DNA of 64,000 nt from Candidatus Iainarchaeum sp. (GTDB taxonomy: Archaea > Iainarchaeota > Iainarchaeia > Iainarchaeales > 1-14-0-10-31-34): the NCBI GenBank assembly GCA_017609625.1, contig JAFCDN010000002.1:2785-66784 (forward strand), in the 5' to 3' direction. The notes under the pieces are model-generated. The model was not told the origin of the DNA. It ran no database searches and saw only the letters and a program-made list of their open reading frames with translations. Each line of letters begins with the position of its first letter. Position 1 is the first letter of the stretch. Of this stretch, positions 3,174 to 52,218 are shown piece by piece. The position numbers were made by a program, and so were the translations under genes.

Positions 3174-4598
3174 ATGAAGCAAATAAGTAAAGGCATTTGG
3201 GAAATTCCAAAACAAGGAAAAATGCTAGTTCCAGGAAGAGTATATGGAACAAAAAAAATAGTTGAAGAAATCGAAGACAATGCAATAACACAATTAACTA
3301 ATGTAGCTGAACTTCCAGGGATACAAAAATATTCTATTGCCATGCCTGATGCTCACCAAGGATATGGAATGATAATCGGCGGGGTAGCAGCATTTGATGC
3401 AGAAAATGGAATAATTACTCCTGGCTCGATTGGTTTTGATGTAAACTGTGGGATCAGACTAGTAAAAACAAATTTAACAGAAAAAGATGTTAAAGGAAAA
3501 GAAAAAGAAATTTTAAATGAATTGTTTAATCAGGTCCCAGCTGGCTTGGGTTCAAAAGGGCAGTTCAGAGCTAATAAAGAACAGCTACAAGAGGTAATGC
3601 TAAAAGGTTCAGCTTGGGCAATAGAAAACGGTTTTGGATGGAAAGAAGATTTAGAGAAAACAGAAGAAAACGGAAAAATGCAGGAAGCTGATCCGAAAAA
3701 TGTTTCAGAAAAAGCAATTCAAAGAGGGTTGCTGCAGTTAGGTTCTTTAGGTTCAGGAAACCATTTTTTAGAGATACAAAAAATTGAAGAAATCTTTGAT
3801 GAAAAAACTGCAAAAGAGTTTGGTCTGCAGAAAGGAAAATTATGTTTAATGATTCACTGTGGAAGCAGAGGCTTTGGACATCAGATTGCATCAGATTATC
3901 TTGATACAATGGAAAAAGCAATGAAAAAATATGGAATAAAAGTGAGTGACAAGCAGTTAGCGTGTGCTCCGATTAATTCAGAAGAAGGAAAAAAATATTT
4001 CAGTGCAATGGCTTGTGCAGTAAACTATGCTTTTGCAAACAGGCAGATGATTTTGCACTGGACAAGAAAAAGCTTTGAAAAAGTTTTAGGAAAAACAGCA
4101 GAAGAAATGCAGCTGCATTTAGTTTATGATGTAGCACATAATATTGCAAAATTTGAAGAACACGAAATTGACGGCAAAAAAATGAAAGTTTTAGTGCACA
4201 GAAAAGGAGCTACAAGGGCTTTTCCTGCAGGAAAAAAAGAAAATCCTTTATCTTATATGAAAACAGGCCATCCTGCATTAATTCCTGGTTCAATGGGGAC
4301 TGCTTCCTGGGTTGTAGTTGGAACAGAAAAAGGACTGGAAGAAACTTTTGGTTCTGTCGCGCACGGAGCAGGCAGGGTTATGAGCAGATCAAAGGCAATT
4401 AAAACCAAAAGAGGAGAACAAGTGCAAAAAGAACTTGAACTGCAGGGAAAATTTGTTAAATCCAGAAGCCCAAAAACTCTGGCAGAAGAAATGCCTGAAG
4501 CATACAAAGACGTGGATGAAGTGATAAAATCTTTAGAGATTTCAGGGATAGCAAAAAAGGTTGCAAGAATGATTCCGATTGGAGTAGTAAAAGGTTAG
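3174..4598 (+). CDS. rtcB: tRNA-splicing ligase RtcB
   Basis: 474 aa; AMPDAHQGYGMIIGGV, GIDVNCGIRL, HRKGATRAFP and GSMGTASWVV motifs of RtcB. Confidence 0.95.
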   Translation: MKQISKGIWEIPKQGKMLVPGRVYGTKKIVEEIEDNAITQLTNVAELPGIQKYSIAMPDAHQGYGMIIGGVAAFDAENGIITPGSIGFDVNCGIRLVKTNLTEKDVKGKEKEILNELFNQVPAGLGSKGQFRANKEQLQEVMLKGSAWAIENGFGWKEDLEKTEENGKMQEADPKNVSEKAIQRGLLQLGSLGSGNHFLEIQKIEEIFDEKTAKEFGLQKGKLCLMIHCGSRGFGHQIASDYLDTMEKAMKKYGIKVSDKQLACAPINSEEGKKYFSAMACAVNYAFANRQMILHWTRKSFEKVLGKTAEEMQLHLVYDVAHNIAKFEEHEIDGKKMKVLVHRKGATRAFPAGKKENPLSYMKTGHPALIPGSMGTASWVVVGTEKGLEETFGSVAHGAGRVMSRSKAIKTKRGEQVQKELELQGKFVKSRSPKTLAEEMPEAYKDVDEVIKSLEISGIAKKVARMIPIGVVKG

Positions 4599-5017: not shown

Positions 5018-5111
5018 TTTCTCTTCAATATAAAGTCAAAGATATATTTAAATACCTTCAATCACAGACTTATATATAATTTACCACTTTAGAGTGGTTA
5101 AGGGTGGTCTG

Positions 5112-7997
5112 ATGAAAAAATTTCTTGCTTTGATAATCTCTTTGATTTTTGTTTTAAGCTCAGTTAATGCTGCAGTTTTAGTTGATACTCATGATACATA
5201 TGAAGTTGAAGTCACTTCAGTTCAATTAAGAAGCTATTATGATTCTCACTGGAGCAATTCAATTACAGCAAACGACAATGATCCAATAGATATAAGGGCA
5301 GACATTTTTTTGGATTACTATAACTATTACGGAGACAGATATTATCCTTATGATTGGGTTGAAGTATGGGCTGAAGTTTATGCCTGGGACAACGGCGACT
5401 GGGTTTTTATTAAAGAAACCAATACACGACAGGTAAACCTTTATTATGCAGACCATAAAAGCGTTTACTGGTATGATGCTTTTTTTATTGACAATTATTA
5501 CAGCGAATACAAGGTTATAGTTAAGGCAAGAAATTATGAATACTACCAAGATTACAGCGAAAACTATGCTTTTATCAGTGTAAGAGAAGGCGGATTTGAT
5601 TCATACTGCAATGATATAGAAATTTTTTCAAATTCAATTGCCTTAAATGAAAATGAAGAAAAAAAAGTCACTTTTACAATAAAAAACAATTCAGATGAAA
5701 GGTTTTACATTGAACCAGATTCTTATGTGGATGAAATATACGGCGGCTCTTTTTTCAATGCATGGATTTATGATTATGACCGGTCAATTTCCGCAGGCGG
5801 AAGAGGAGAAGTAACAGTTAAAGTAAGAAGTCAAGAAGTAAGCGAAAATGAAGAAGGAAAAGCAAGACTAACAATTAAAGGAAAGTTTTACAGCGGAAAA
5901 ACATGCGATTCTGATATTAAAAGAGATTTCATTGTAAGAGTAGATAATGAATCAGAATATGAATCCTGCAAAGACATTAAAATTAATGCTTCAGATGAAA
6001 GAATGGAAGAAAACTCAACTGAATACTTTTCTTTTACTGTAAGAAATTATTCTAACACTGCATTCTATGCAAGGGCTGATGTAAGCAGTAACAACTCATT
6101 TTTTAATGCAACAGAAGAGCATTCAAATCAGGTTTACATTTCTCCAAACTCCACAGAAACATTTAGATACAAAGTAAAAAGCGATTATGTTTCTTACAAA
6201 GAAAGAGGAAAAATTTACATTAAGATTTCAGGCAATTACTCTGGCGGAGACAATTGCTCTTATTCAGAAATAGGACAAAAAACAGTTTATTTGACAGTAG
6301 AAGATAATTATTGGGAAGGAGAACAATGCGATGATTTGTCTTTGAGAACAAAAACTTTGTATGTTGATGAACAAGATGTTTATTCTGCTTCTTTTACAAT
6401 AGAAAACAATTCAAGCAGAAAATTTTACATTGAAGATATAGATTTTGATGAATACAGTTCAGAACTGGAATTCAGAAATGTAGATTACTCTTCACAAATT
6501 TCAGGAAACTCTGACAGCAAAGTTTCTTTTGATGTAAAAACAGGAAACATAAGTTCAGACAAAACAATTACTTCATACTTTAAAGTTGAAGGAAGTTTTG
6601 AAAACGGAAGAAGCTGTTCTTTTTCTGATACAAGAAAAAGATTTGATGTAAAAATAGATGCAGATTCTTCAGGCTCTTATTCAGAAAGCTGTAATGAAAT
6701 AGATGTAATCACTAGAACAGTTTCTTTGGATAAAGGAAAAACAGAATACTTTGAATTTACAATAGAAAATAATGAAGACAAAAAATTCTATGTTGATTAT
6801 GTAAATGCATATGACAATGATTCAAAGATTGAAACATCAGAATATGATTTTCCTTCAATAGTTTACGCAAACTCTGATGGAAAAATAAAAGTTAGAATTA
6901 AAGCAAACCAGACAGGAACAGCAACAGCATATATTGAAGTCAGAGGGCATTTTAGCAACGGAAAAAGCTGTTCTATTTCTGCAATAGGAAAAGAAAGCTT
7001 TACAGTAAAAGTTGAAACAACCACAAGAGACAGCTGTTCAGAATTTTATTTAGATACCCCTGCAACCAAAAGTGTTTTGGGAAGAGAAAAAATTGTTTTA
7101 AACATTGATAATCCAACAAACAAAAGCGGAACAATAAGAATCAGCGGAACAGATTTGTCAGTGAGTCCGCATACAATTGATGTTCCAAAAAACACTTCTT
7201 TTACTAAAACAATTGAAGTGGAATTACTTGAAGGAAAAGAAAGCTATTTAGTTTATAACATTTCTCTGGATGGATGTAATATTACCTCTAAAACCACAAA
7301 GATTTTTTCAACAAAAGAATCTTTTGAAGTTACAGGATATCCAAGGGAAAAAACTATTGGATTAGAAGACACAATTTCTTTTACCTTAGTAAACAATTCT
7401 GCTGTAACAAGAGACTTTAAGGTTTCATTGGAAAACCTGCCTTCTGGATGGAAAGCAAACCAGAAAAGCATTTCAATTCCAGGAAACTATGACAGAAGAG
7501 CAAGCATTTCATTAGAAGCAGATTCAGCAGGAACATACAGTGTTCTTTTGGTGGTTGAAACCGCAGGAAGAACAATAGAAAAAGAAATTGAATTAAGAGT
7601 AGAAGAAAAAGAAGTAACTGTTTCAGCTGAAACCACAAGTGGTTTCTTAAACGATTTGCAGTTAAAGATAACAATCGAAAATGAAACAGAACAAGACATT
7701 GAAGGAAATCTGATTGTAGATCTTCCAGAGAATTGGACCATGGAAGGAAACCCAAACATTGAAGTTAAAGCAAACAGCAAAAAAGAAATCTTCTTTTCTT
7801 TAAAAACTGACGGTACAGAAAAAGAATTTGATGTTTTATTAGAGTTAGAAGATGGAAGAGAAGTTTCAGCTACAGCTGACACAAAAGAAATTGGAAGCGG
7901 GACTGCATTGATTTCTTTAGGAAACAACGCAGGCTTGGTTGTTGGCTTGCTTGCAATAGTAATAGTAGTAGTAATTTTGCTTGTGAAAAGGCAATAG
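5112..7997 (+). CDS. Large secreted cell-surface protein with about 8 internal ~110-130-aa repeats and a C-terminal TM anchor
   Basis: Signal peptide MKKFLALIISLIFVLSSVNA; recurring ...F(T/S)(I/V)(K/E/R)NNS..(K/R)FYIE... modules with paired Cys; C-terminus GLVVGLLAIVIVVVILLVKRQ. Confidence 0.7.
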   Translation: MKKFLALIISLIFVLSSVNAAVLVDTHDTYEVEVTSVQLRSYYDSHWSNSITANDNDPIDIRADIFLDYYNYYGDRYYPYDWVEVWAEVYAWDNGDWVFIKETNTRQVNLYYADHKSVYWYDAFFIDNYYSEYKVIVKARNYEYYQDYSENYAFISVREGGFDSYCNDIEIFSNSIALNENEEKKVTFTIKNNSDERFYIEPDSYVDEIYGGSFFNAWIYDYDRSISAGGRGEVTVKVRSQEVSENEEGKARLTIKGKFYSGKTCDSDIKRDFIVRVDNESEYESCKDIKINASDERMEENSTEYFSFTVRNYSNTAFYARADVSSNNSFFNATEEHSNQVYISPNSTETFRYKVKSDYVSYKERGKIYIKISGNYSGGDNCSYSEIGQKTVYLTVEDNYWEGEQCDDLSLRTKTLYVDEQDVYSASFTIENNSSRKFYIEDIDFDEYSSELEFRNVDYSSQISGNSDSKVSFDVKTGNISSDKTITSYFKVEGSFENGRSCSFSDTRKRFDVKIDADSSGSYSESCNEIDVITRTVSLDKGKTEYFEFTIENNEDKKFYVDYVNAYDNDSKIETSEYDFPSIVYANSDGKIKVRIKANQTGTATAYIEVRGHFSNGKSCSISAIGKESFTVKVETTTRDSCSEFYLDTPATKSVLGREKIVLNIDNPTNKSGTIRISGTDLSVSPHTIDVPKNTSFTKTIEVELLEGKESYLVYNISLDGCNITSKTTKIFSTKESFEVTGYPREKTIGLEDTISFTLVNNSAVTRDFKVSLENLPSGWKANQKSISIPGNYDRRASISLEADSAGTYSVLLVVETAGRTIEKEIELRVEEKEVTVSAETTSGFLNDLQLKITIENETEQDIEGNLIVDLPENWTMEGNPNIEVKANSKKEIFFSLKTDGTEKEFDVLLELEDGREVSATADTKEIGSGTALISLGNNAGLVVGLLAIVIVVVILLVKRQ

Positions 7998-10953: not shown

Positions 10954-11001
10954 AACAAACTTTTAGAAAAAGTTTGATCAAAACAAAAATTAGGTGAAAA
11001 A

Positions 11002-11881: not shown

Positions 11882-12754
11882 ATGATTGAAAGAACATTCA
11901 TAAAACAAGGAATAAAAAAAATTGAAATGGAAAATTATTTGAAGAAAGAACTGTATAAAGCAGGCTTTACAAAACTGGAAACAATGAAAACCCCTTTAGT
12001 AACAAGAATTGTATTAAATGTAACTCACCCAGGCCTTGCAATAGGAAAAGGCGGAACAAACATAAAAAAGCTTACAAGGGTATTAGAAGAAAGATTTAAA
12101 GTGCAAAATCCTCAAATTGAAATAAGAGAAATTACTGTGCCGGAATTGGATGCACAGGCAATGGCAGACAAAATATCTTCTTTAATAGGAAGAGGATTCA
12201 GCTGGAGAAGTGTAGTTTACAGAACATTAAAAGCAATAAGAGGCGCAGGAGCACAAGGAGCAGAAATAGTTTTATCAGGAGCATTAGGCGGAAAAGGAGT
12301 AAGAAAAAGAAAACAAAGAATAGCAGAAGGGTATATGAAAAAAATAGGAGAACAGGCAAAATTAGTTGATTACGGTTGTGCGCCGGCAAAAGCAAAATTC
12401 GGAACAATAGGAGTAAAAGTAAGAATAGTAAAGCCAGAAACAGTTTTTCCGGATAAGATTGATATTAAAGAAATAATTGAAAGCAGAAAAGACAAAGCAG
12501 AAGAAGAAAAGAAAAACAAAAAAGAAAAAGAAGAGAAAAAGGAAGAAAAAAAAGACAGTAAAGAAGAAAAAGAAGACTCAAAAGAAAAACACAAAAAACA
12601 CGAGAAAAAAGAAAAAGAAGACAAAGAAGAAAAGAAAAAACACCAAACAAAAAAAGAAGATAATAAAAAAGAAAAGAAAAAAGAACATCCAAAAAAAGAA
12701 ACTGAAAAAAAGAAAGAAGAAAAAAAAGAAGACTCAAAAGCGGAAAAGAAGTGA
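11882..12754 (+). CDS. rps3: 30S ribosomal protein S3 (uS3) with a ~90-aa Lys/Glu-rich C-terminal low-complexity tail
   Basis: KH domain LVTRIVLNVTHPGLAIGKGGTNIKKL...; the tail is KEEKKDSKEEKEDSKEKHKK... Confidence 0.9.
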   Translation: MIERTFIKQGIKKIEMENYLKKELYKAGFTKLETMKTPLVTRIVLNVTHPGLAIGKGGTNIKKLTRVLEERFKVQNPQIEIREITVPELDAQAMADKISSLIGRGFSWRSVVYRTLKAIRGAGAQGAEIVLSGALGGKGVRKRKQRIAEGYMKKIGEQAKLVDYGCAPAKAKFGTIGVKVRIVKPETVFPDKIDIKEIIESRKDKAEEEKKNKKEKEEKKEEKKDSKEEKEDSKEKHKKHEKKEKEDKEEKKKHQTKKEDNKKEKKKEHPKKETEKKKEEKKEDSKAEKK

Positions 12755-12758
12755 TTAA

Positions 12759-13073
12759 ATGGTGGCAATAAAAGGAAAAGAACTAAGAGGGCTGCCTGCA
12801 GAAGAACTGGAAGAAAAAGTAGTTTCTCTAAAAAATGAATTATCAAAAGAAAAAACACAAATTAGTTCAGGGACAAGAGCAGAAAACCCTGGAAAAATAA
12901 AAAAAATAAGAAGAGAAATTGCAAGAACGCTTACAATAATTAATGAAAAGAAAAAAACAAAAGCTTCTAAAGAAACAGAAAAACAACCTTTAAACCTTTT
13001 AGAAAAAGCTTTACCAAAACAAAAGGTTGAACAAAAAAAGGAAGAAAAAAATAAAAAGGAGGTAAAAAAATAA
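12759..13073 (+). CDS. rpl29: 50S ribosomal protein L29 (uL29) with a K-rich C-terminal extension
   Basis: LRGLPAEELEEKVVSLKNELSKEK...IKKIRREIARTLTIIN. Confidence 0.85.
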   Translation: MVAIKGKELRGLPAEELEEKVVSLKNELSKEKTQISSGTRAENPGKIKKIRREIARTLTIINEKKKTKASKETEKQPLNLLEKALPKQKVEQKKEEKNKKEVKK

Positions 13074-14367: not shown

Positions 14368-15000
14368 GTGATTAAAATGAAAACAAAAAAACCTTCAAAG
14401 CAAAGAAGAAGATTATACAAAGGAAAACTCCATGAAAGGAAAAATGTTTTAAGTGCACATTTAAGCAAAGAGTTAAGAAAAGAAACAGGAAAAAGAAGTT
14501 TAATGGTAAAAAAAGGAGACAAAATTAAAATAATGAGAGGACAGCACAAGAAAAAAGAAGGAAAAATACTTCAGGTTGATCATAAAAAAGCAAAAATTTT
14601 CATTGAAAAAATTACAAGAAAAAAAGCAGACGGAACAGAAAAACTGATTCCATTTAAGGCAAGCAATTTGGTTTTATTGGAACTGGAAAGAAAAGATGAT
14701 AAAAGATTGAAAAGAGCAAAACAACCTTTTTCAAAGAAAAAGCTTGACCAAAAAACTGAAAAAGAAGAAAAGGAAAAAGAAACAAAAACTGAAGAAAAAC
14801 AACCTTTTTTAGAAAAAAAGGTTGCAACTCAAACCAAAAGTTTGAGTGCACAACAAAATCAAGATTTTGTTAGTGAACAAAAAACTGACCAAAAAAAAGA
14901 AGCACCAAAAGAAACACCTTTTTCAGAAAAAGGGGTAACAAAAACACCAGAAAAAAAAGAAACAGTTAAAGAAGAAAAGAAAGAGGAAAAAAAGGAGTGA
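14368..15000 (+). CDS. rpl24: 50S ribosomal protein L24 (uL24) with a ~100-aa C-terminal extension built from palindromic repeat elements
   Basis: KOW core MVKKGDKIKIMRGQHKKKEGKILQVD; the tail contains ...KQPFLEKKVATQTKSLSAQQNQDFVSEQK... and ...TPFSEKG... Confidence 0.9.
   Translation: MIKMKTKKPSKQRRRLYKGKLHERKNVLSAHLSKELRKETGKRSLMVKKGDKIKIMRGQHKKKEGKILQVDHKKAKIFIEKITRKKADGTEKLIPFKASNLVLLELERKDDKRLKRAKQPFSKKKLDQKTEKEEKEKETKTEEKQPFLEKKVATQTKSLSAQQNQDFVSEQKTDQKKEAPKETPFSEKGVTKTPEKKETVKEEKKEEKKE
14791..14885. repeat. ~95-nt composite three-hairpin repeat element, copy A, in frame in the rpl24 3' extension
   Basis: AACCTTTTTTAGAAAAAAAGGTT + CTCAAACCAAAAGTTTGAG + ACAAAATCAAGATTTTGT; a copy at 51911-52005 differs by 1 nt. 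Confidence 0.8.
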
Positions 15001-16776: not shown

Positions 16777-17313
16777 ATGAAAGGACAGGAAAAAATAACT
16801 GAAGTTCCGGAAGGAACAAAAGCAGAAGTCCAAGGGAACACAGTAAAAATCAGCGGAAAGCTGGGAACACTAGAAAGAGATTTTACCCACAACAAAGTGA
16901 AAATAGAAATACAGGAAAACAAAATAAAAATTTCAACAAAAGAAGTTTCAAAAAGAACAAAAAAAAGGATAAACACAGTTAACGCACACATAAAAAATAT
17001 GATTATAGGAGTAACAAAAGGTTATACTTACAAAATGCAGATTGTTTTCTCACACTTTCCAATAAATGCGACAGTAAAAGGAGATACAGTTGAAATAGTA
17101 AACTTTGTGGGAGAAAAAAACCCAAGAAAATCAAAAATAGTCGGACAGACAAAAGTTGAAATAAAAGGAAAAGAAATTACAATAACAGGAAACAACAAAG
17201 AAGACGTTGGACAGACAACAGCAAATATAGAAAAAGCAACAAAAATAAAAAACAGGGATTCAAGGGTTTTTCAGGACGGAATATATTTAACAGGAAAAGC
17301 GGTGAGCGAATAA
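16777..17313 (+). CDS. rpl6: 50S ribosomal protein L6 (uL6)
   Basis: ITEVPEGTKAEVQGNTVKISGKLGTLERDF...; ATG at 16777 is preceded by AAGGTG; the ORF track extends to 16756. Confidence 0.85.
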   Translation: MKGQEKITEVPEGTKAEVQGNTVKISGKLGTLERDFTHNKVKIEIQENKIKISTKEVSKRTKKRINTVNAHIKNMIIGVTKGYTYKMQIVFSHFPINATVKGDTVEIVNFVGEKNPRKSKIVGQTKVEIKGKEITITGNNKEDVGQTTANIEKATKIKNRDSRVFQDGIYLTGKAVSE

Positions 17314-17954
17314 TGCCAGAAGAAACAAAAAAACAAACAGAAGGAAAAAAAGAATCACCAAAAGAAAAGAAAAAAGAGATACTTACAGAAAAAGAGGAAG
17401 ATTTAGCCAAAGAAGAAAAGAAAACCACAAAAAAAAATGATAAAAAAGAAACCAAACCAACAACTGAAAAACCTGCTTTTGAGAAAAGCCAGGTTGCCAA
17501 AACCAAAGAAGAAAAAAAGCCTGCTGAGAAACCCAAACCAAAAAAACCAGAGAAGCCAAAAGCAGTGAACAAAATAGAAAAAACAAAAGAACAGAAAAAA
17601 TTGCAGGAAAAAATAAAAGAAAAAAAAGTCCCAGTGATAAGGGGAAACTTTGGAAAAGCATGGTTAAGAAGAAAAGCAATAAAAAAATGGCAGAAATGGA
17701 GAAAACCAAGAGGAATAGATTTTAGATTAAAAAAAGAGAACGGAGCAAAACCAAAAATGGGTTTCAGATCTCCAGCAGAAATAAGAGGACTGCACCCCTC
17801 AGGCCTGCAGGAAGTTTATGTGAGAAATTTAAATGAACTGAAAGAAATAAAAGAAAAAAATAAAGTAATAAGATTAAACGGAAATATCGGAAAGAAAAAG
17901 AAAAAAGAAATACTAAAAAAAGCCAAAGAAAAAAAAATGAGGATACTAAACTAA
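17313..17954 (+). CDS. rpl32e: 50S ribosomal protein L32e (eL32) with a ~100-aa K/E-rich N-terminal extension containing a palindromic repeat
   Basis: Core GKAWLRRKAIKKWQKWRKPRGIDFRLKK...GFRSPAEIRGLHPSGLQEVYV; the extension includes KPAFEKSQVAKTKEEKK, encoded by the repeat at 17468-17503. Confidence 0.85.
   Translation: MPEETKKQTEGKKESPKEKKKEILTEKEEDLAKEEKKTTKKNDKKETKPTTEKPAFEKSQVAKTKEEKKPAEKPKPKKPEKPKAVNKIEKTKEQKKLQEKIKEKKVPVIRGNFGKAWLRRKAIKKWQKWRKPRGIDFRLKKENGAKPKMGFRSPAEIRGLHPSGLQEVYVRNLNELKEIKEKNKVIRLNGNIGKKKKKEILKKAKEKKMRILN
17468..17503. repeat. Type-B palindromic repeat variant (AAACCTGCTTTTGAGAAAAGCCAGGTTGCCAAAACC) in frame inside rpl32e
   Basis: Differs by 2 nt from the copy in rps4 at 24983-25018. 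Confidence 0.7.
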
Positions 17955-17955
17955 A

Positions 17956-18402
17956 GTGATTAAAATGCAGTTAAACAAAATCAGAAGAATGGCAGCAGAA
18001 ATAATGAAAGTAGGAAAAACAAAAATTGTTTTTTCAGAAAAAGACCGGGAAAGAATAGCAGAAAGCATGACAAAAGAAGATGTAAGGGCGCTTATAAAAG
18101 AAGGAATAGTAAAAAAAAGAAAAGACAAACATCAAAGCAAAGGCCGGGCAAGAAAACTTAAAGAAAAAAAAACAAAAGGAAGAAAAAGAGGAAAAGGAAA
18201 AAGAAAAGGAAAAAAAACTGCAAGAACAAAAAAGAAAAAAGAATGGATGAAAAAAGTAAGAGCGCAGAGAAAAAAACTGAAAGAACTGAAAGGAAAAATA
18301 AAAGAAAAAGGCGAATACGGAAGAATGTACAAAATGATTAAAGGAAATTATTTCAAAGGAAAAAAATACGTTGAAACAATGGTTAAAGGTGACAAAAAAT
18401 GA
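17956..18402 (+). CDS. rpl19e: 50S ribosomal protein L19e (eL19)
   Basis: 148 aa; MQLNKIRRMAAEIMKVGKTKIVF...DVRALIKEGIVKKRK... Confidence 0.9.
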   Translation: MIKMQLNKIRRMAAEIMKVGKTKIVFSEKDRERIAESMTKEDVRALIKEGIVKKRKDKHQSKGRARKLKEKKTKGRKRGKGKRKGKKTARTKKKKEWMKKVRAQRKKLKELKGKIKEKGEYGRMYKMIKGNYFKGKKYVETMVKGDKK

Positions 18403-22015: not shown

Positions 22016-22492
22016 ATGGTTGTATTTAGTGCAGTATTAGATGTAACATTATTTGCAGTGATTGTAGGATTAATTTCCCAGGCATTGCAGAGAAAGTTAA
22101 TGGACAAAAAAGCCCAGAAAGCTAAACAGCAGGCAATGAAAGAAAAACAAAAAAAACTAAAAGAATTAATGAAACAAGGAGATGAAGCATCAAAAAAAGA
22201 AGCAGAAAGACTTAACATGGAATTAATGGGCGACATGAAAGACATGTTCAAAGGAATGCAAAAATTCATGATTGCATCATTGATTGTAATAATGCCTATA
22301 TTTTATTTAGGAGTAAGCACTTATGCAAAGGAAACATTTATTGTATTTGGATGGAAAGTACCTCAGTTTATTTTTCCGCCGTATATTGTATGGTATTTTA
22401 TTTCCAGCATAATTTTCAGCATAATTTTTAATTTGATAATGAAAGCAGTAGAACCGGCTCTTGAAAAAAGACAGTTAGCCAAAACCCAATAA
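22016..22492 (+). CDS. DUF106 / EMC3-Oxa1-like membrane insertase homolog
   Basis: 158 aa; TM, a charged coiled-coil segment (KKAQKAKQQAMKEKQKKLKEL...), then 2 TM; archaeal DUF106 normally follows secY/adk. Confidence 0.55.
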   Translation: MVVFSAVLDVTLFAVIVGLISQALQRKLMDKKAQKAKQQAMKEKQKKLKELMKQGDEASKKEAERLNMELMGDMKDMFKGMQKFMIASLIVIMPIFYLGVSTYAKETFIVFGWKVPQFIFPPYIVWYFISSIIFSIIFNLIMKAVEPALEKRQLAKTQ

Positions 22493-22590
22493 GTGATTTT
22501 ATGACACAACACACCTTTTTTGAAAAAAGCTGTACCAAAAACGTTTTCGCTAAAGCGAAAACTTGCTTTCTTTTCTTTGGGCAACCTACA

Positions 22591-22619
22591 CTTTCTTTTC
22601 TTTATGAAAGAAAAGAAAA
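22591..22619. promoter_or_regulatory. Perfect 13/3/13 palindrome CTTTCTTTTCTTT-ATG-AAAGAAAAGAAAG in the DUF106/L34e intergenic region
   Basis: A related hairpin CGTTTTCGC-TAAA-GCGAAAAC lies at 22542-22562; a similar CGTTTTCG...CGAAAAC motif also occurs in the tRNA-Leu intron. Confidence 0.35.
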
Positions 22620-22635
22620 GACAGAGTGAGATTAA

Positions 22636-24187: not shown

Positions 24188-25048
24188 ATGGGAGACCCAA
24201 AAAAAACAAAAAAGAAATACATCAGGCCAAGAAAACCTTGGGACAGAACCAGGCTAGATGAAGAAAGAAAACTAAAAGAAACTTATGGACTGAAAAACAA
24301 AAAAGAGCTTTGGGGATTGGAACAAATACTAAAAAGCAAGAGACAAAACGCAAGAAAACTGCTTGCATTAGAACTGGAAAGAAGGCTTAAAAGAGAAAAA
24401 GAATTAATGGACAGCCTGAAAAAAATAGGTTTAGTAAAAGAAAATGCTTCACTGGATGACATTTTAAGTTTAAGAATAGAAGAGTTTCTTGAAAGAAGGC
24501 TTCAGACAATAGTCTGGAGAAAAGGACTTGCAAACACAGTAAAACAGGCAAGACAATTCATTGTTCACGGACATATAGCAATAAACGGAAAAAAAGTAAC
24601 AAAACCCTCATATATTGTTAAAACAGAAGAAGAAGGAAAAATAAATTACTACAAAAAACCTCTCAAACTGAAACAGGAGAAACCTAAAACAAAAAAAGAC
24701 TTGAAAAAAGAATTCAAAAAAGCAGAATCAACAGAAGGGGCTGAAAAGCAATTAAAAACAGAAGGAAAAAATAAAGATTTAGTTAAAGAAAAAACTGAAA
24801 CAAAAAAAGAATCTCCTAAAGCAGAAAAAGAAACCCCAAAAACTAAAAAAAAGAAAGAAGAAAAACCAAAAAAAGAAAAAACTGAAGATAAAAAAACAGA
24901 AACAAAAGAAAAGGAAGAAAAAGAACCTCAAAAAACTGAAGAGAAACCAGCAGAAAAATCAGATGAAAAACCAAAAACAGAAAAACCAGCTTTTGAGAAA
25001 AGCCGGGTTGCCAAAACCAAAGAGAAAGAACAAGGTGAAGAAAAATGA
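24188..25048 (+). CDS. rps4: 30S ribosomal protein S4 (uS4) with a ~130-aa K/E-rich C-terminal extension ending in a palindromic-repeat-encoded peptide
   Basis: Core ...[34 protein letters not shown]...; the tail ends ...[24 protein letters not shown]. Confidence 0.9.
24983..25018. repeat. Type-B palindromic repeat variant in frame at the 3' end of rps4
   Basis: AAACCAGCTTTTGAGAAAAGCCGGGTTGCCAAAACC; encodes [12 protein letters not shown]. Confidence 0.7.
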
Positions 25049-26010: not shown

Positions 26011-26225
26011 GCAGGGGTACCCAAGCGGTCAACGGGGCAGGACTTAAGAAACCTTTTTCAGAAAAAGTTTCATCAAAACTGCCTTTTTCACAAAAAGGCA
26101 AGCTGCCAAAAACGTTTTCGTTTCACGAAAACACGCAAAGCGTTTTTTGGTAAATCTTTTTTGAAAAAAGATTTTGGGAGATCCTGTGGCTTAGTGCCTT
26201 CGAGAGTTCGAATCTCTCCTCCTGC
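26011..26225 (+). tRNA. tRNA-Leu(UAA), class II with a long variable arm, containing a 132-nt intron at the canonical 37/38 position (26049-26180)
   Basis: Acceptor GCAGGGG pairs with CTCCTGC, discriminator A; U8, A14, G18G19 present; anticodon stem CAGGA/TCCTG; loop CTTAAG|A with anticodon TAA; 15-nt variable arm TGGCTTAGTGCCTTC; T-arm GAGAG-TTCGAAT-CTCTC; no encoded CCA. Confidence 0.8.
26049..26180 (+). other. tRNA-Leu intron composed largely of palindromic repeat units
   Basis: Contains AAACCTTTTTCAGAAAAAGTTT, a type-B unit (26076-26114), a CGTTTTCG...CGAAAAC hairpin and AAATCTTTTTTGAAAAAAGATTT. Confidence 0.65.
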
Positions 26226-26302
26226 ATAAACTTTTTAGAAAAAAGTTTAATCAAAAAAAAACCTTTTTAGAAAAAAGGTTGAACAAAAACAAAGTTTAAT
26301 CA

Positions 26303-26340
26303 AAACCGCCTTTTTAGAAAAAAGGCAGGTTGCCAAAAAA
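26303..26340. repeat. Type-B palindromic repeat, intergenic copy, inside a cluster of three hairpin units at 26229-26345
   Basis: AAACTTTTTAGAAAAAAGTTT, AACCTTTTTAGAAAAAAGGTT and CCGCCTTTTTAGAAAAAAGGCAGGTTGCCAAAAAA occur in series. Confidence 0.7.
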
Positions 26341-26357
26341 TAAAAAAACGTGAAAAT

Positions 26358-27145: not shown

Positions 27146-27670
27146 ATGCCTGAAGAAAAAAAAGAAGAAGAAAAAGAGAAAATGAAAAAAGAATTTGAAG
27201 AGATGACAAAAGAAACAGAAGAAAAAGAAAAGCAAAAAAAGAAAGGAAAGAAAAAAGCAAAGAGAAGCAAAAAATACGGTATGCTTGTAAAATCAAAGAA
27301 AAAAGAAGCAATCGCAAGGGCAGTTGTAAAAACAGGCAATGGAAAGATTACTATAAATAAAAGAAGCATTGAGTTCATTGAACCAGAATATGTAAAAGAA
27401 TTAATTTTAGAGCCAGTAAAACTAGCTGGAGATGCATTAAAAGAAGTAGACATAAAAATAAATGTTAAAAGCGGAGGCTTTATGGGCCAAGCGGTTGCTG
27501 CAAGAAGCGCAATAGCAAAAGCAATAGTAGAATACACTAACGACAAAAAACTAAAAGAACAGATGATAAAGTATGACCGATTATTGATAGTTGATGATCA
27601 TAGAAGAGTTGAACCAAAAAAACCTTTAGGAAAGAAAGCAAGGAAAAAAAGACAAAGCTCTAAGAGGTGA
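27146..27670 (+). CDS. rps9: 30S ribosomal protein S9 (uS9) with a ~45-aa K/E-rich N-terminal extension
   Basis: Core ...[27 protein letters not shown]...[12 protein letters not shown]; the extension is [20 protein letters not shown]... Confidence 0.85.
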
Positions 27671-27885: not shown

Positions 27886-28593
27886 ATGGAAAAAGAAACA
27901 ACAACCGAAACAGAAAGATACCTGAAAACAGGAGCACATATCGGAACAAAATACAAAACAGGAAATATGCTGAAATATATTTACAAAAGCAGAGAAGACG
28001 GATTAAAAGTAATGGATATTAAGACACTAGATGAAAGAATAAACATTGCTGCGAAATTTATTTCAAAATATGAAAAAGAAAAAGTAGTTGTTGTTTCAAG
28101 AAAACTATATGGAAAAACCCCAATAAAAGAATTTGGAAAAGCAACCGGAACAAAAGCAGTTCACGGAAGGTTTGTTCCAGGATCATTCACAAACCCTGAA
28201 GGAAAAAAATTTATTGAACTGGCTTTATTGATTGTAACAGAACCAGATACAGATTTTCAGGCAATAAAAGAAGCAAAAAAGTTGAAAGTTCCTATTATTG
28301 CATTATGCTCAACAAACAACTCAACAAAAGACGTTGATTTAGTTATTCCAGTGAACAATAAAGGAAGAAAAAGCCTTGCTTTAGTTTACTGGACGCTTGC
28401 AAAAATAATTTTACTTGAAAGAGAAGAAATAAAAAACGAAAAAGAATTCAAAAAAACAACTGAAGACTTTGAATACAAAATAAAGGAAGGCAAAGAAGAA
28501 CTAATGAAAGAAAGAATGGCAATGGAAAGCAAAAGAAAAGGCAAAGGAAGAGGCAGAAGAGGCCCTCCAATTAAAAGGCCTATGAGGCGCTAA
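27886..28593 (+). CDS. rps2: 30S ribosomal protein S2 (uS2)
   Basis: 235 aa; ...YLKTGAHIGTKYKTGNMLKYIYKSREDGLKVMDIKTLDERI... Confidence 0.9.
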   Translation: MEKETTTETERYLKTGAHIGTKYKTGNMLKYIYKSREDGLKVMDIKTLDERINIAAKFISKYEKEKVVVVSRKLYGKTPIKEFGKATGTKAVHGRFVPGSFTNPEGKKFIELALLIVTEPDTDFQAIKEAKKLKVPIIALCSTNNSTKDVDLVIPVNNKGRKSLALVYWTLAKIILLEREEIKNEKEFKKTTEDFEYKIKEGKEELMKERMAMESKRKGKGRGRRGPPIKRPMRR

Positions 28594-28595
28594 AC

Positions 28596-28690
28596 CTTTT
28601 TAAAAAAAAGGTTTAACAAAAACAAACTTTTAGAAAAAGTTTGATCAAAAAAACCTTTTAAAAAAAGTTTCACTAAAAAGATTAATGATA
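28596..28690. repeat. Intergenic array of three palindromic hairpin units (AAACCTTTTTAAAAAAAAGGTTT, AAACTTTTAGAAAAAGTTTG, AAACCTTTTAAAAAAAGTTTC)
   Basis: Same family as the 10953-10990, 13922-13950 and 26229-26345 copies. Confidence 0.65.
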
Positions 28691-35005: not shown

Positions 35006-35197
35006 ATGAAAGTGAACTGTAGCTTTTGTGGCAAAGAAATCAAAAAAGGAACAGGAACAATGTTTGTAAAAAAAGACGGCACTACATTTAATTTTTGTTC
35101 TTCCAAATGCGAAAAAAATTTACTAAAACTCAAAAGAAACCCAAGAAAAATTAAATGGACAAAAGAATACCACAAAATAAAAAAAGCAAAAAAATAA
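35006..35197 (+). CDS. rpl24e: 50S ribosomal protein L24e (eL24)
   Basis: 63 aa; [34 protein letters not shown]. Confidence 0.9.
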
Positions 35198-35211
35198 TAA
35201 AAGGTGATAAA

Positions 35212-35775
35212 ATGGAAAGAACCTTAATTTTAATAAAACACGACGGAGTTCAAAGAGGATTAGTAGGAGAAATAATTAAAAGATTTGAACAAAAAGGATT
35301 AAAGATTGCAGGAATGAAAATGATTCAGGCAACAGAAGAAATGACAAAAAAACATTATGTAATAACACCAGAGTGGACTAAAAAACTTGGAGATAATACA
35401 AGAAAGTCAGCAGAAAAAAAAGGAAAAAAAGTAACAGAAACAGACGAAGAAATAGCAAAAAGAATTCACTCGTGGAACTCAGAGTATTTAATGGAAGGGC
35501 CATTAATAGCAATAGTGTTTGAAGGATACCATGCAATAGAAATCGGAAGAAAATCAATTGGAAGCACTGAAGCAAGAAAAGCAGATATAGGAACAATAAG
35601 AGGAGACTATTCAGTTGACTCATATGAAATAGCAGAAGACAAAAAAAGGTCTGTAAGAAATTTAATCCATGGTTCAGAAGATTCAATACAAGCAGACAAT
35701 GAAATCAATTTGTGGTTTACAAAAAAAGAACTGTATGACTACAAGAAAAAAGACTGGGAAATAATTTTTAAGTGA
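35212..35775 (+). CDS. ndk: Nucleoside diphosphate kinase
   Basis: MERTLILIKHDGVQRGLVGEIIKRFEQKGLKIAGMKM...NLIHGSED; ATG preceded by GGTGATAAA; the ORF track extends upstream to 35155. Confidence 0.85.
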   Translation: MERTLILIKHDGVQRGLVGEIIKRFEQKGLKIAGMKMIQATEEMTKKHYVITPEWTKKLGDNTRKSAEKKGKKVTETDEEIAKRIHSWNSEYLMEGPLIAIVFEGYHAIEIGRKSIGSTEARKADIGTIRGDYSVDSYEIAEDKKRSVRNLIHGSEDSIQADNEINLWFTKKELYDYKKKDWEIIFK

Positions 35776-44333: not shown

Positions 44334-45038
44334 TTAGCCCTCTAAAAGTTTTTCTATTACTGCTCTGAATTCTTTTGCTTCTGAATCCAAATCGTTTTCT
44401 CTTTCATAGCCGTTTCCTATTCTAGAGTATTTACAGCCAAAAATAAAATTCGGAACATAGCCTTTTGGATTGAATTGCTGATAAATTGCTTTCTCTGAAG
44501 CCGGAACAGAAGTTTCAACTTCTGAAGTCAAAGTATTGTCTCCAGTATCCAGTTTCCAATGAAATGCAACAATTTTTTCTTCATCAATTAATTCTTTCAT
44601 TGCAGAATCAAAGGTTTCTAAAATCCAAGTGCAGTGAGGACAGCTAGTAGTTGAAAACAATCTTACAACAGGTTTTCCGTCTTCCAAACAAATTTCACCG
44701 TCTGTTTCAATAAAAGTTCCAAAAGTTCCAATGTCTTTTGGTTCTATTGTTTCTTCTCCATTTTCTCCTGGATCATTTGTCGTGTCAGAACCATCTATTG
44801 TATCAGAACCATCTATTGTATCAGAACCATCTATTGTATCAGAACCATCTATTGTATCAGAACCATCTATTGTATCAGAACCATCTATTGTATCAGAACC
44901 ATCTGTCGTGTCGTCAGTTTGTTCCTGCTGAGCAGAAGTGTTTGTTGTGTTTGTTACTGACTGGTTTATGCATCCGCTGACCAAAACAAACAAAATTAAA
45001 GTTACTATAATTAATTGTTTAATGATTTCGCCCTCCAA
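44334..45038 (-). CDS. Thioredoxin-fold (CPHC) lipoprotein-like protein with a (DGSDTI)x7 linker
   Basis: N-terminal TM then LVSGC lipobox-like; 7 tandem DGSDTI units; ...RLFSTTSCPHCTWILETF... thioredoxin CxxC. Confidence 0.6.
   Translation of the reverse strand: MEGEIIKQLIIVTLILFVLVSGCINQSVTNTTNTSAQQEQTDDTTDGSDTIDGSDTIDGSDTIDGSDTIDGSDTIDGSDTIDGSDTTNDPGENGEETIEPKDIGTFGTFIETDGEICLEDGKPVVRLFSTTSCPHCTWILETFDSAMKELIDEEKIVAFHWKLDTGDNTLTSEVETSVPASEKAIYQQFNPKGYVPNFIFGCKYSRIGNGYERENDLDSEAKEFRAVIEKLLEG
44785..44910. repeat. Seven tandem 18-bp repeats (TCAGAACCATCTATTGTA on the + strand; 6 perfect and 1 variant) inside the thioredoxin-like gene
   Basis: Direct reading of the sequence; encodes (DGSDTI)n on the - strand. 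Confidence 0.9.
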
Positions 45039-51415: not shown

Positions 51416-52021
51416 GTGATTAATTTGGTTGAGCATAAACAAGAAAAAGAAGCAGAAAAGCATAAAGACAAGAAAAAACAAAAAAAAGACCCTAAAGATG
51501 TAAAAATTGAAGAACTGACTGAATTAGTTAAAAGAGTTCAGGCAGAATTTGAGAATTTCAAGAAAAGAGAAGAAAAAGACAGGAAACAATTTGTAGAGTA
51601 CAGCAATGCAGAATTGATTTCCAATTTGCTTCCTGTTTTAGATTCAGTCCAAGCAGCCGAAAATACAGAAGAAGCAAAAAAATTAATTCAACCAATAAAA
51701 ACACAATTAACACAAGTATTAGAAAAATATGGATTAAAAGAAATAGAAGCTCTAGGAAAAAAATTCAATCCAGAATTGCATGACTGTTTAATGCAAGAAA
51801 ATGATTCAGAAAAAGAAAATAATATTGTATTAGAAGAACTGCAAAAAGGATATACTTTGAAAGACAAAGTTTTAAGGCATGCAAGAGTGAAAATCAACAG
51901 AAAAAAAACAGAAGAAAAACAACCTTTTTTAGAAAAAAAGGTTGCAACTCAAACCAAAGGTTTGAGTGCACAACAAAATCAAGATTTTGTTAGTGAACAA
52001 AAAAAAGGAGAAGAAAAATAA
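51416..52021 (+). CDS. grpE: Nucleotide exchange factor GrpE with a palindromic-repeat-encoded C-terminal tail
   Basis: ...LLPVLDSVQAA...GKKFNPELHDCLMQE...; the tail KKTEEKQPFLEKKVATQTKGLSAQQNQDFVSEQKK is encoded by repeat copy B. Confidence 0.8.
   Translation: MINLVEHKQEKEAEKHKDKKKQKKDPKDVKIEELTELVKRVQAEFENFKKREEKDRKQFVEYSNAELISNLLPVLDSVQAAENTEEAKKLIQPIKTQLTQVLEKYGLKEIEALGKKFNPELHDCLMQENDSEKENNIVLEELQKGYTLKDKVLRHARVKINRKKTEEKQPFLEKKVATQTKGLSAQQNQDFVSEQKKGEEK
51911..52005. repeat. ~95-nt composite three-hairpin repeat element, copy B, in frame at the grpE 3' end
   Basis: Differs from 14791-14885 by 1 nt (AAAGG vs AAAAG). Confidence 0.8.
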
Positions 52022-52218
52022 TAGTAAAAAATTAAATTCAAAATTTTTAGGAGATAAATTTTATGAATATAGAAGTTCAAGAAGAATTTGAGGAAGAAGA
52101 AATTCCAGAGATTCCAGAAGATGCAAAACCAGAACCTTTTTCAGAAAAAGGTTCAGAAAAAAACCAGAAAAAATTAAGGTTTGAGATTTATGCAAATTAA
52201 AAAAAAAGGTGATAAAAA

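Follow-up and report, generated by a model that had tools for sequence, protein, structure and literature searches.

E95, a three-hairpin palindromic repeat lying in frame in the L24 and GrpE genes of a DPANN archaeon, and its likeness to Rickettsia palindromic elements

Rickettsia palindromic elements (RPEs) were reportedly described by Ogata et al. in 2000 and 2002, and elements of the archaeon Methanocaldococcus jannaschii are said to have been described by Suyama et al. in 2005. According to two published accounts, RPEs lie in frame in unrelated housekeeping genes, within non-structured segments, and are also found in tmRNA, RNase P RNA and spacers, with no transposase known (PMC10969869, PMC2229807). 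A third report extends in-frame palindromic repeats of housekeeping genes to Wolbachia and to M. jannaschii (PMC2996958). In-frame hairpin elements being known from these three sources (PMC10969869, PMC2229807, PMC2996958), an initial annotation of the DNA studied here was mistaken in stating that their mechanism had not been described. We analysed a 64,000-nt stretch of Candidatus Iainarchaeum sp. (contig JAFCDN010000002.1, positions 2,785 to 66,784 of the forward strand; hereafter the window) and, within it, a three-hairpin repeat of ~85-100 nt, named E95, that lies in frame in the genes of ribosomal protein L24 (uL24) and GrpE. E95 is probably an RPE-like, non-autonomous palindromic repeat, tolerated in disordered protein segments and part of a population of T-run/A-run hairpin modules that has spread in a Diapherotrites (DPANN) group. 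The phenomenon itself is known; the novelty lies in the DPANN/Diapherotrites lineage, in a modular architecture of three hairpins, in the range of hosts (L24, GrpE, archease, L32e and tRNA introns) and in the evident recency of the copies. Literature searches returned no report of palindromic DNA inside protein-coding genes for DPANN archaea.

The 84-nt core of E95 matched the window exactly twice, at 14801-14884 (0 mismatches) and 51921-52004 (1 mismatch), and was matched in none of 100 shuffled sequences. Copy 1 (14785-14884, + strand; 114 bits with the covariance model R1) is located in the C-terminal tail of L24, and copy 2 (51905-52004, + strand; 116 bits) in that of GrpE, where the stop codon follows 16 nt downstream. 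Between 14791-14884 and 51911-52004 the sole mismatch (A at 14839, G at 51959) belongs to hairpin 2, where it affects the loop or its closing pair; a weaker similarity (92 %) covers 14781-14901 and 51901-52021, and farther out the flanks are unrelated. The two-copy, three-hairpin element with a single mismatch that the initial annotation had delineated was recovered in its core and hairpins, and only its end had been placed one base too far, as positions 14885 and 52005 differ. With R1, these were the only two strong copies in the window and none further was found in 64 kb of related loci, other hairpin clusters giving weak matches.

The perfect hairpins of copy 1 span 14800-14824 (11 bp), 14827-14847 (8 bp, against 9 bp in GrpE) and 14852-14871 (8-9 bp), and those of copy 2 span 51920-51944, 51947-51967 and 51972-51991. 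The minimum-free-energy fold of the single strand consists of exactly these three hairpins, with the ends of E95 unpaired. Its free energy was -26.5 kcal/mol as RNA (z = -5.7) and -23.1 kcal/mol as DNA (z = -7.6), and none of 200 shuffles was equally stable.

Both window copies come from one assembly, which could favour a repeat-induced duplication or a chimeric metagenome join; NCBI and JGI have the same contig of 68,822 nt. The initial annotation had itself named such an artefact, recognisable for example by identical flanks, as a possible refutation. The flanks proved unrelated and unique, and the gene order of relatives is kept on both sides of both copies: S17-L14-L24-S4e-L5 is common to the window and the sister genome PFAI01 (hereafter PFAI; locus L008), and HTH-grpE-small ORF-dnaK-dnaJ to the window and a relative (locus L007). 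On these grounds, neither a duplication made in assembly nor a chimeric joining accounts for the two copies. Both frames are moreover open, an E95 of ~100 nt is shorter than typical reads, and the repeat recurs in independent assemblies, other samples and other genes, one of its copies in three assemblies, all of which makes an artefact extremely improbable.

In both host genes, E95 sits in frame downstream of the conserved domain. The L24 gene (14368-15000, + strand) carries the Pfam domain Ribosomal_L26/L24P at residues 6-115 of 210, and grpE (51416-52021, + strand) the Pfam domain GrpE at residues 8-161 of 201; the in-frame location and the shared peptide are as the initial annotation gave them. 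The L24 tail (14713-14997) comprises 95 K/E-rich codons (285 nt) with 0 in-frame stops, whereas the remaining five frames contain 2-7 stops each, and this frame stays open in just 0.1 % of composition-matched shuffles; the S4e start directly follows the L24 stop, as in relatives. The open frame of 95 codons indirectly suggests that the tails are translated. Only one of the six frames of E95 is stop-free, and it is the one used in all five known copies (three of them outside the window, see below), where ~30 residues would be added per protein with the peptide QPFLEKKVATQTK(S/G)LSAQQNQ(D/N)FVSEQK. The predicted tryptic peptides of the E95-bearing tails are SLSAQQNQDFVSEQK, GLSAQQNQDFVSEQK and VATQTK. 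AlphaFold2 predicted the L24 domain with confidence and residues 120-210 as unstructured (pLDDT <50, no secondary structure).

Several other classes of structured DNA were compared with E95. The Rfam scan of the window gave no match at the gathering threshold, and at E95 only chance-level miRNA and PyrR matches. The ends of E95 are unpaired in both the minimum-free-energy and the centroid folds, whereas a bulge-helix-bulge intron would have them joined in a helix with two 3-nt bulges; the fold thus does not support a spliced intron, for which a stop-free frame in all copies would also be unnecessary. On the sense strand, the pattern of an intrinsic terminator was not found, the T-run of E95 lying within the stem and two copies lying far from gene ends.

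Outside the window, E95 was searched with a 21-mer spanning hairpins 2 and 3. Among 185,579 species-representative genomes this probe gave one match, on contig PFAI01000035 of Candidatus Diapherotrites archaeon CG10_big_fil_rev_8_21_14_0_10_31_34, and JGI metagenomes gave five matches, which were sorted by their flanks. Three additional host genes were identified, i.e. those of a 416-aa GT2 glycosyltransferase with E95 in its C-terminal tail (loci L001 = L002 = L006, from three assemblies independent of one another), of a K/E-rich 313-aa protein whose zinc finger is C-terminal (L004) and of a 244-aa protein of the 5-formyltetrahydrofolate cyclo-ligase family (L005/L010, P0121). Distances of E95 to the stop codon were 16, ~45 and 115 nt in the tails; otherwise E95 occupies residues ~90-120 of the zinc-finger protein and residues 29-59 of the cyclo-ligase-family protein. 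The host of L005 had first been read as FtsY from gene order, before Pfam assigned it to the cyclo-ligase family, and locus L003 was rejected as a chance match to the 21-mer only. Five unrelated host contexts with unrelated flanks thus share one frame. This agrees with the initial annotation, according to which the hairpin element is shared by unrelated genes and tolerated inside open reading frames, the further three hosts belonging to related genomes; its statement that the element extends C-termini applies to the L24, GrpE and GT2 tails and not to the other two copies, which are N-terminal or internal.

At the protein level, a HMMER search of the 32-aa peptide against 1.84 billion cluster-representative proteins retrieved the cyclo-ligase-family protein as sole match. 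A word-indexed search with a 43-aa peptide returned no candidates although the host proteins are in the database, which reflects a limit of the index and not absence. Neither E95 nor the family-B module defined below was found in the viral contigs searched, i.e. no viral vector was found.

The initial annotation had proposed a comparison with orthologues lacking the insert, and all of the nearest ones do lack it: the E95 peptide was found in 0 of 14 GrpE and 0 of 11 L24 orthologues, including those of the syntenic sister genome PFAI, and these proteins have K/E-rich tails of varying length or are tailless. Among the genomes with a checkable orthologue, none has an occupied E95 site. Since it is absent from orthologues, E95 is, on this sequence comparison, evidently an insertion and not an ancestral segment.

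The window genome is distinct from PFAI, whose L24 (P0123, 164 aa) is 72 % identical. The window and PFAI share synteny, their amino-acid identity being 70-88 %, and eight conserved genes showed 83.6 % DNA identity, falling to 71 % at third positions. E95 differs between the window and PFAI at ~1 per ~60 positions outside the hairpin-1 loop, and its identity between genomes is 95-99 %. As this is far above the housekeeping identity of the host genomes, a recent spread is suggested: the common ancestor of the E95 copies would be much younger than the genome split, unless the copies are homogenised or strongly constrained.

The few variable sites of E95 fall within loops or the pairs that close them. 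In hairpin 2, the closing pair is C-G in the GrpE and GT2 copies, C.A in L24 and T-A in L004 and L010, and hairpin 1 takes the forms T6-AG-A7 and T5-CC-A5, which differ by 3 nt without loss of palindrome or frame. Covariation among the five copies amounted to one compensatory pair, which is not significant (153 of 500 shuffles reach it), there being too little variation for the test. The variants are mosaic between copies, and the ends of the shared block differ: on its left side the block is longer by 15 nt in the two window copies, and on its right side an extra GTGCCTYCGGCAA is common to L001 and L004.

E95 forms part of a broader set of short hairpin modules of the form CCTTTTT-loop-AAAAAGG. 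In the window, 30 perfect hairpins with a stem of at least 9 bp were observed where 6.0 +/- 2.5 were expected, 7 with a stem of at least 11 bp where 0.57 were expected, and 29 matches to the motif CCTTTTTNNRAAAAAGG where 5.5 were expected. Hairpin density (stem of at least 8 bp) was 0.77 per kb in the window compared with 0.34-0.39 per kb in the syntenic regions of L007 and L008 and ~0.30 per kb by chance. These counts suggest an expansion of the hairpin load in the lineage of the window.

A second module family, named family B (consensus AACCGCCTTTTTCAGAAAAAGGCAGGTTGCCAAAAA), is found at several places. One AACCGCCTTTTTCAGAAAAAGGCAGGTTGCCAAAAA module (2355-2398, + strand) lies in frame in the archease gene, where it encodes a 13-residue loop insert (EPPFSEKGRLPKTKK) relative to the solved archease 4n2p. 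Degenerate modules of this family form part of an N-terminal extension of L32e (17468-17511, + strand; KPAFEKSQVAKTKE), absent from the PFAI orthologue, and the last 13 codons of an EMC3-like ORF (EPALEKRQLAKTQ*); the latter module is followed by three intergenic hairpins, and this segment (22453-22620, + strand) makes the spacer between the EMC3-like and L34e genes filled in the window and empty in PFAI, i.e. ~155 extra nt. The L24 tail itself holds a family-B-like module (CCTTTTTCAGAAAAAGG..., TPFSEKGV; 14912-14955, + strand). Among the remaining modules, a 41-nt hairpin-bearing insert (CAAACTTTTAGAAAAAGTTTG...; 10954-10994, + strand) separates L2 from S19 at a site that is empty in the sister genome, and two modules (28591-28643, + strand), 87 % identical to the module at 26259-26305, overlap and then follow the S2 stop codon. 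The hairpin GAACCTTTTTCAGAAAAAGGTTC (52132-52154, + strand) is in frame (EPFSEKGS) in a 45-codon ORF between grpE and dnaK and is absent from the L007 orthologue. PFAI carries hairpins in its own S3 and L29 tails.

Some observations were made beside these modules. The small ORF between grpE and dnaK (44-45 codons; window 52063-52200, L007 10586-10720) is unannotated and conserved; its N-terminal half is acidic, it ends ...IYAN and it has no Pfam match. Archease (2084-2545), the RtcB cofactor that bears the 13-residue hairpin-module insert, is encoded 630 nt upstream of the window RtcB (3174-4598; 474 aa, no intein), whereas the PFAI RtcB (L008 1-601) has 983 aa with an intein. ORF 5094-7997 had first been read as an intein-containing RtcB and was set aside, the actual RtcB being the intein-free 3174-4598. 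Many ribosomal proteins of this lineage (S3, L32e, L19e, S4, S9 and others) have long K/E-rich low-complexity extensions with GAA/AAA/AAG runs; such tracts (12461-12760, 17313-17600, 18100-18250, 24730-25048 and 27150-27270) are seats of hairpin modules.

Hairpin modules also occupy tRNA introns. The tRNA-Leu(TAA) gene (26011-26226, + strand) is interrupted by a 122-nt intron (26049-26170) composed of four hairpin modules, one of them a family-B copy (26077-26120), and is directly followed by an intergenic mosaic of three modules (26227-26347, + strand; family-B copy at 26304-26347). This gene was found only when long introns were allowed: ARAGORN with default settings detected no tRNA in the 64-kb window, and Rfam none at the gathering threshold. 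In the PFAI lineage, tRNA-Thr(CGT) (L002, complement of 250-445) has a 121-nt intron of the same modules, family B included. The modules thus lengthen tRNA introns to the point where the genes escape ARAGORN at default settings and Rfam scans. The module GTTTTCG-loop-CGAAAAC lies in opposite orientations in the two introns, which points to a palindromic unit at the DNA level.

The tRNA introns bear on whether the peptide itself, as an interaction or localisation tag, is the functional module that was shuffled between proteins. All E95 copies are genic and in the same frame, and the motif PF(S/L)(E/K)K recurs in ~10 coding hairpin modules in one phase, as a peptide tag would have it. The same modules are nevertheless present in non-coding DNA as well as within a tRNA intron, in either orientation, and the differences between copies are mostly nonsynonymous (S/G, D/N, LEK/S-K). 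A perfect palindromic structure would be needless for a peptide that was moreover found in only one of the 1.84 billion proteins searched and that lies, in L24, in a tail predicted to be disordered. We consider such a tag very unlikely.

The location of single modules raises another possibility, namely that the hairpins are functional cis-acting signals (oligo-T termination or attenuation, transcript stability, protein-binding site) absorbed into the ORF ends of compact genomes. Many single modules lie 0-30 nt from stop codons or from the 3' end of a tRNA (10956, 13929, 26227, 28591 and 54103), and the modules bear T5-T7 on both strands. A scan for terminator-like sites gave 20 where 10.7 +/- 3.9 were expected and flagged hairpin 1 of E95 on the antisense strand; the elements are also conserved above neutral sites with mostly nonsynonymous substitutions, as a nucleotide signal would be. 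E95 does not, however, keep a constant distance from gene ends, and a terminator within the L14-L24-S4e operon or within archease would be harmful. With orthologous genes lacking E95 in relatives and no Rfam family matched, a role of the hairpins as cis-acting signals seems unlikely.

As for the way in which the copies arise, the RPE-like reading would have E95 copied at the DNA level, its coding capacity being limited to one open frame. Copies would land, or survive, where they are tolerated, i.e. in spacers, tRNA introns, disordered K/E-rich tails, linkers and loops; in proteins, read-through of the single stop-free frame would add ~30 unstructured residues. Such a spread would be selfish or neutral. 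In A-rich GAA/AAA tracts, recombination or template switching may do the copying, or else a putative trans-acting enzyme may target a GAAGAAAAA-like sequence. Every E95 copy is indeed preceded by GAA(A/G)A(A/G), both window copies by GAAGAAAAA, and this 9-mer is in codon phase 0 at 27 of its 43 occurrences in the window and never intergenic. Insertion after a GAAGAAAAA-like sequence, or recombination through it, would lead mostly to K/E-coding tracts and already in frame, a target preference that would explain why all five E95 copies are genic. A stronger version is improbable: it would make the modules an active, transposase-independent mobile system, sequence-targeted to GAA/AAA-rich codon tracts and so automatically in frame, passed between DPANN species that occur together, under nucleotide-level constraint and a main builder of the K/E-rich ribosomal-protein extensions and of the unusually long tRNA introns of these archaea.

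The A-rich tracts could also be the birthplace of the palindromes. Template switching in A-rich K/E tracts would then make them in place, and multi-hairpin blocks would be copied afterwards by gene conversion or illegitimate recombination via A-run microhomology. The single hairpin module CCTTTTTCAAAGAAAAAG of the L24 tail (14725-14742, + strand; QPFSKKK) has CCAACATCAAAAAAAGAA at the aligned place in the sister genome, i.e. four adjacent substitutions that would create a palindrome if the change ran in this direction, in a low-complexity tail of uncertain alignment. Ordinary GAA-AAA coding sequence makes up the 3' arm GAAAAAGG, which all coding copies read in that phase, and the varying block ends and mosaic variants mentioned above would also suit a local origin. 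For hairpins 2 and 3 of E95, which are no T/A-run palindromes, there is no local source, and near-identical copies occur at non-orthologous sites of different genomes, so that we hold a local origin to be unlikely.

Several results weigh against an RPE-like repeat that spreads by insertion. Copy number is low (the 21-mer occurs once in the PFAI genome, and the window holds two strong copies). All five known E95 copies are genic and 0 are intergenic, unlike the prediction of random insertion plus selection, for which spacers would be the safest landing sites. Terminal inverted repeats are absent, the longest inverted match between the ends of E95 being 7-8 nt of the T/A run, and the copied block has variable ends. 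Signs of target-site duplication are ambiguous: the GrpE copy has the 10-nt AGAAGAAAAA on both sides, which would mean a 99-nt in-frame insert, and the L24 copy a 9-nt repeated word with a spacing of 97 nt, both in low-complexity flanks. No transposase was found among the ~30 window ORFs scanned. Finally, the L29 tail carries a nested hairpin element of older date (QPLNLLEKALPKQKVEQKK; 12984-13040, + strand), which is shared with PFAI at the orthologous site (L008 8443-8498) and differs there at 4 of 55 nt, all four nonsynonymous, against a background third-position identity of 71 %. This hints at constraint or homogenisation of the L29-tail element at the nucleotide and not at the peptide level; nucleotide-level constraint would be as compatible with a functional cis-element as with copies homogenising one another. 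Of the recent transposition of a MITE-like element (MITEs being miniature transposable elements with inverted repeats) asserted by the initial annotation, recent copying is retained, while low copy number, variable ends, ambiguous duplications and the lack of terminal inverted repeats do not suit a MITE.

Two observations on the window concern other genes. Nucleoside diphosphate kinase (35155-35775) has 206 aa, where ~140-150 aa are typical, and its Pfam model is matched in two stretches, suggesting an internal insert. A perfect 18-nt tandem repeat (44785-44904; 6.7 copies, 100 % identity) lies in a minus-strand ORF (44334-45038) without Pfam match.

The present data extend to DPANN archaea the notion of selfish palindromic DNA residing in protein-coding genes, and they bear on the origin of ribosomal-protein extensions and of new peptide segments in reduced genomes. 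To our knowledge, the mechanism by which RPEs are copied is still unknown after 25 years. With copies as near-identical as those of E95, the copying mechanism might be caught in action in time-series metagenomes.

Compared with other palindromic DNA, the window modules resemble repetitive extragenic palindromic (REP) sequences and bacterial interspersed mosaic elements (BIMEs) in being palindromic units of 17-25 nt gathered in mosaic clusters of varying order and orientation (26227-26347 and the tRNA introns). REPs are extragenic and G+C-rich, with GTAG or CGTC tags and RAYT transposases (PMC3733652), whereas the modules are A+T-rich, untagged and also found inside genes; as to E95, all five copies are intragenic and no GTAG/CGTC tag was found in their sequences. 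Like a MITE, E95 is small, non-coding, repeated and structured and can give in-frame fusions; unlike a MITE, it has variable ends, no terminal inverted repeats, no clear target-site duplication and no identified parent insertion sequence. PARCEL elements (PMC2996958) are likewise palindromic coding DNA spread between genes and genomes, but they form tandem arrays of amphipathic surface-protein repeats, whereas E95 is single, interspersed and hosted by cytoplasmic housekeeping proteins. The reports on Wolbachia and M. jannaschii describe in-frame palindromic insertions in housekeeping genes, like E95, the latter providing an archaeal precedent; M. jannaschii belongs to the Methanococcales and the E95 host to the DPANN archaea, and the likeness is one of description.

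The closest likeness is to RPEs as portrayed in the published accounts, i.e. palindromic repeats of ~100-150 nt in small reduced genomes, encoding a conserved peptide in one frame within non-structured or surface segments. RPEs sensu stricto (families RPE-1 to -10) are single stem-loops closed by terminal inverted repeats, a structure that E95 does not have: according to the same accounts, an RPE is one long stem-loop with terminal inverted repeats of ~12 bp, whereas E95 consists of three short hairpins from modules that are also found singly. The host of E95 is moreover archaeal, its copy number much lower and its copies near-identical, i.e. recent, where many RPE insertions are old. With the broader RPE-like class, E95 shares its occurrence in several unrelated genes, one conserved frame, absence from orthologues and location in non-structured or surface segments. 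As this anatomy matches the documented behaviour of RPEs, we propose that E95 is probably a new archaeal representative of the RPE-like class.

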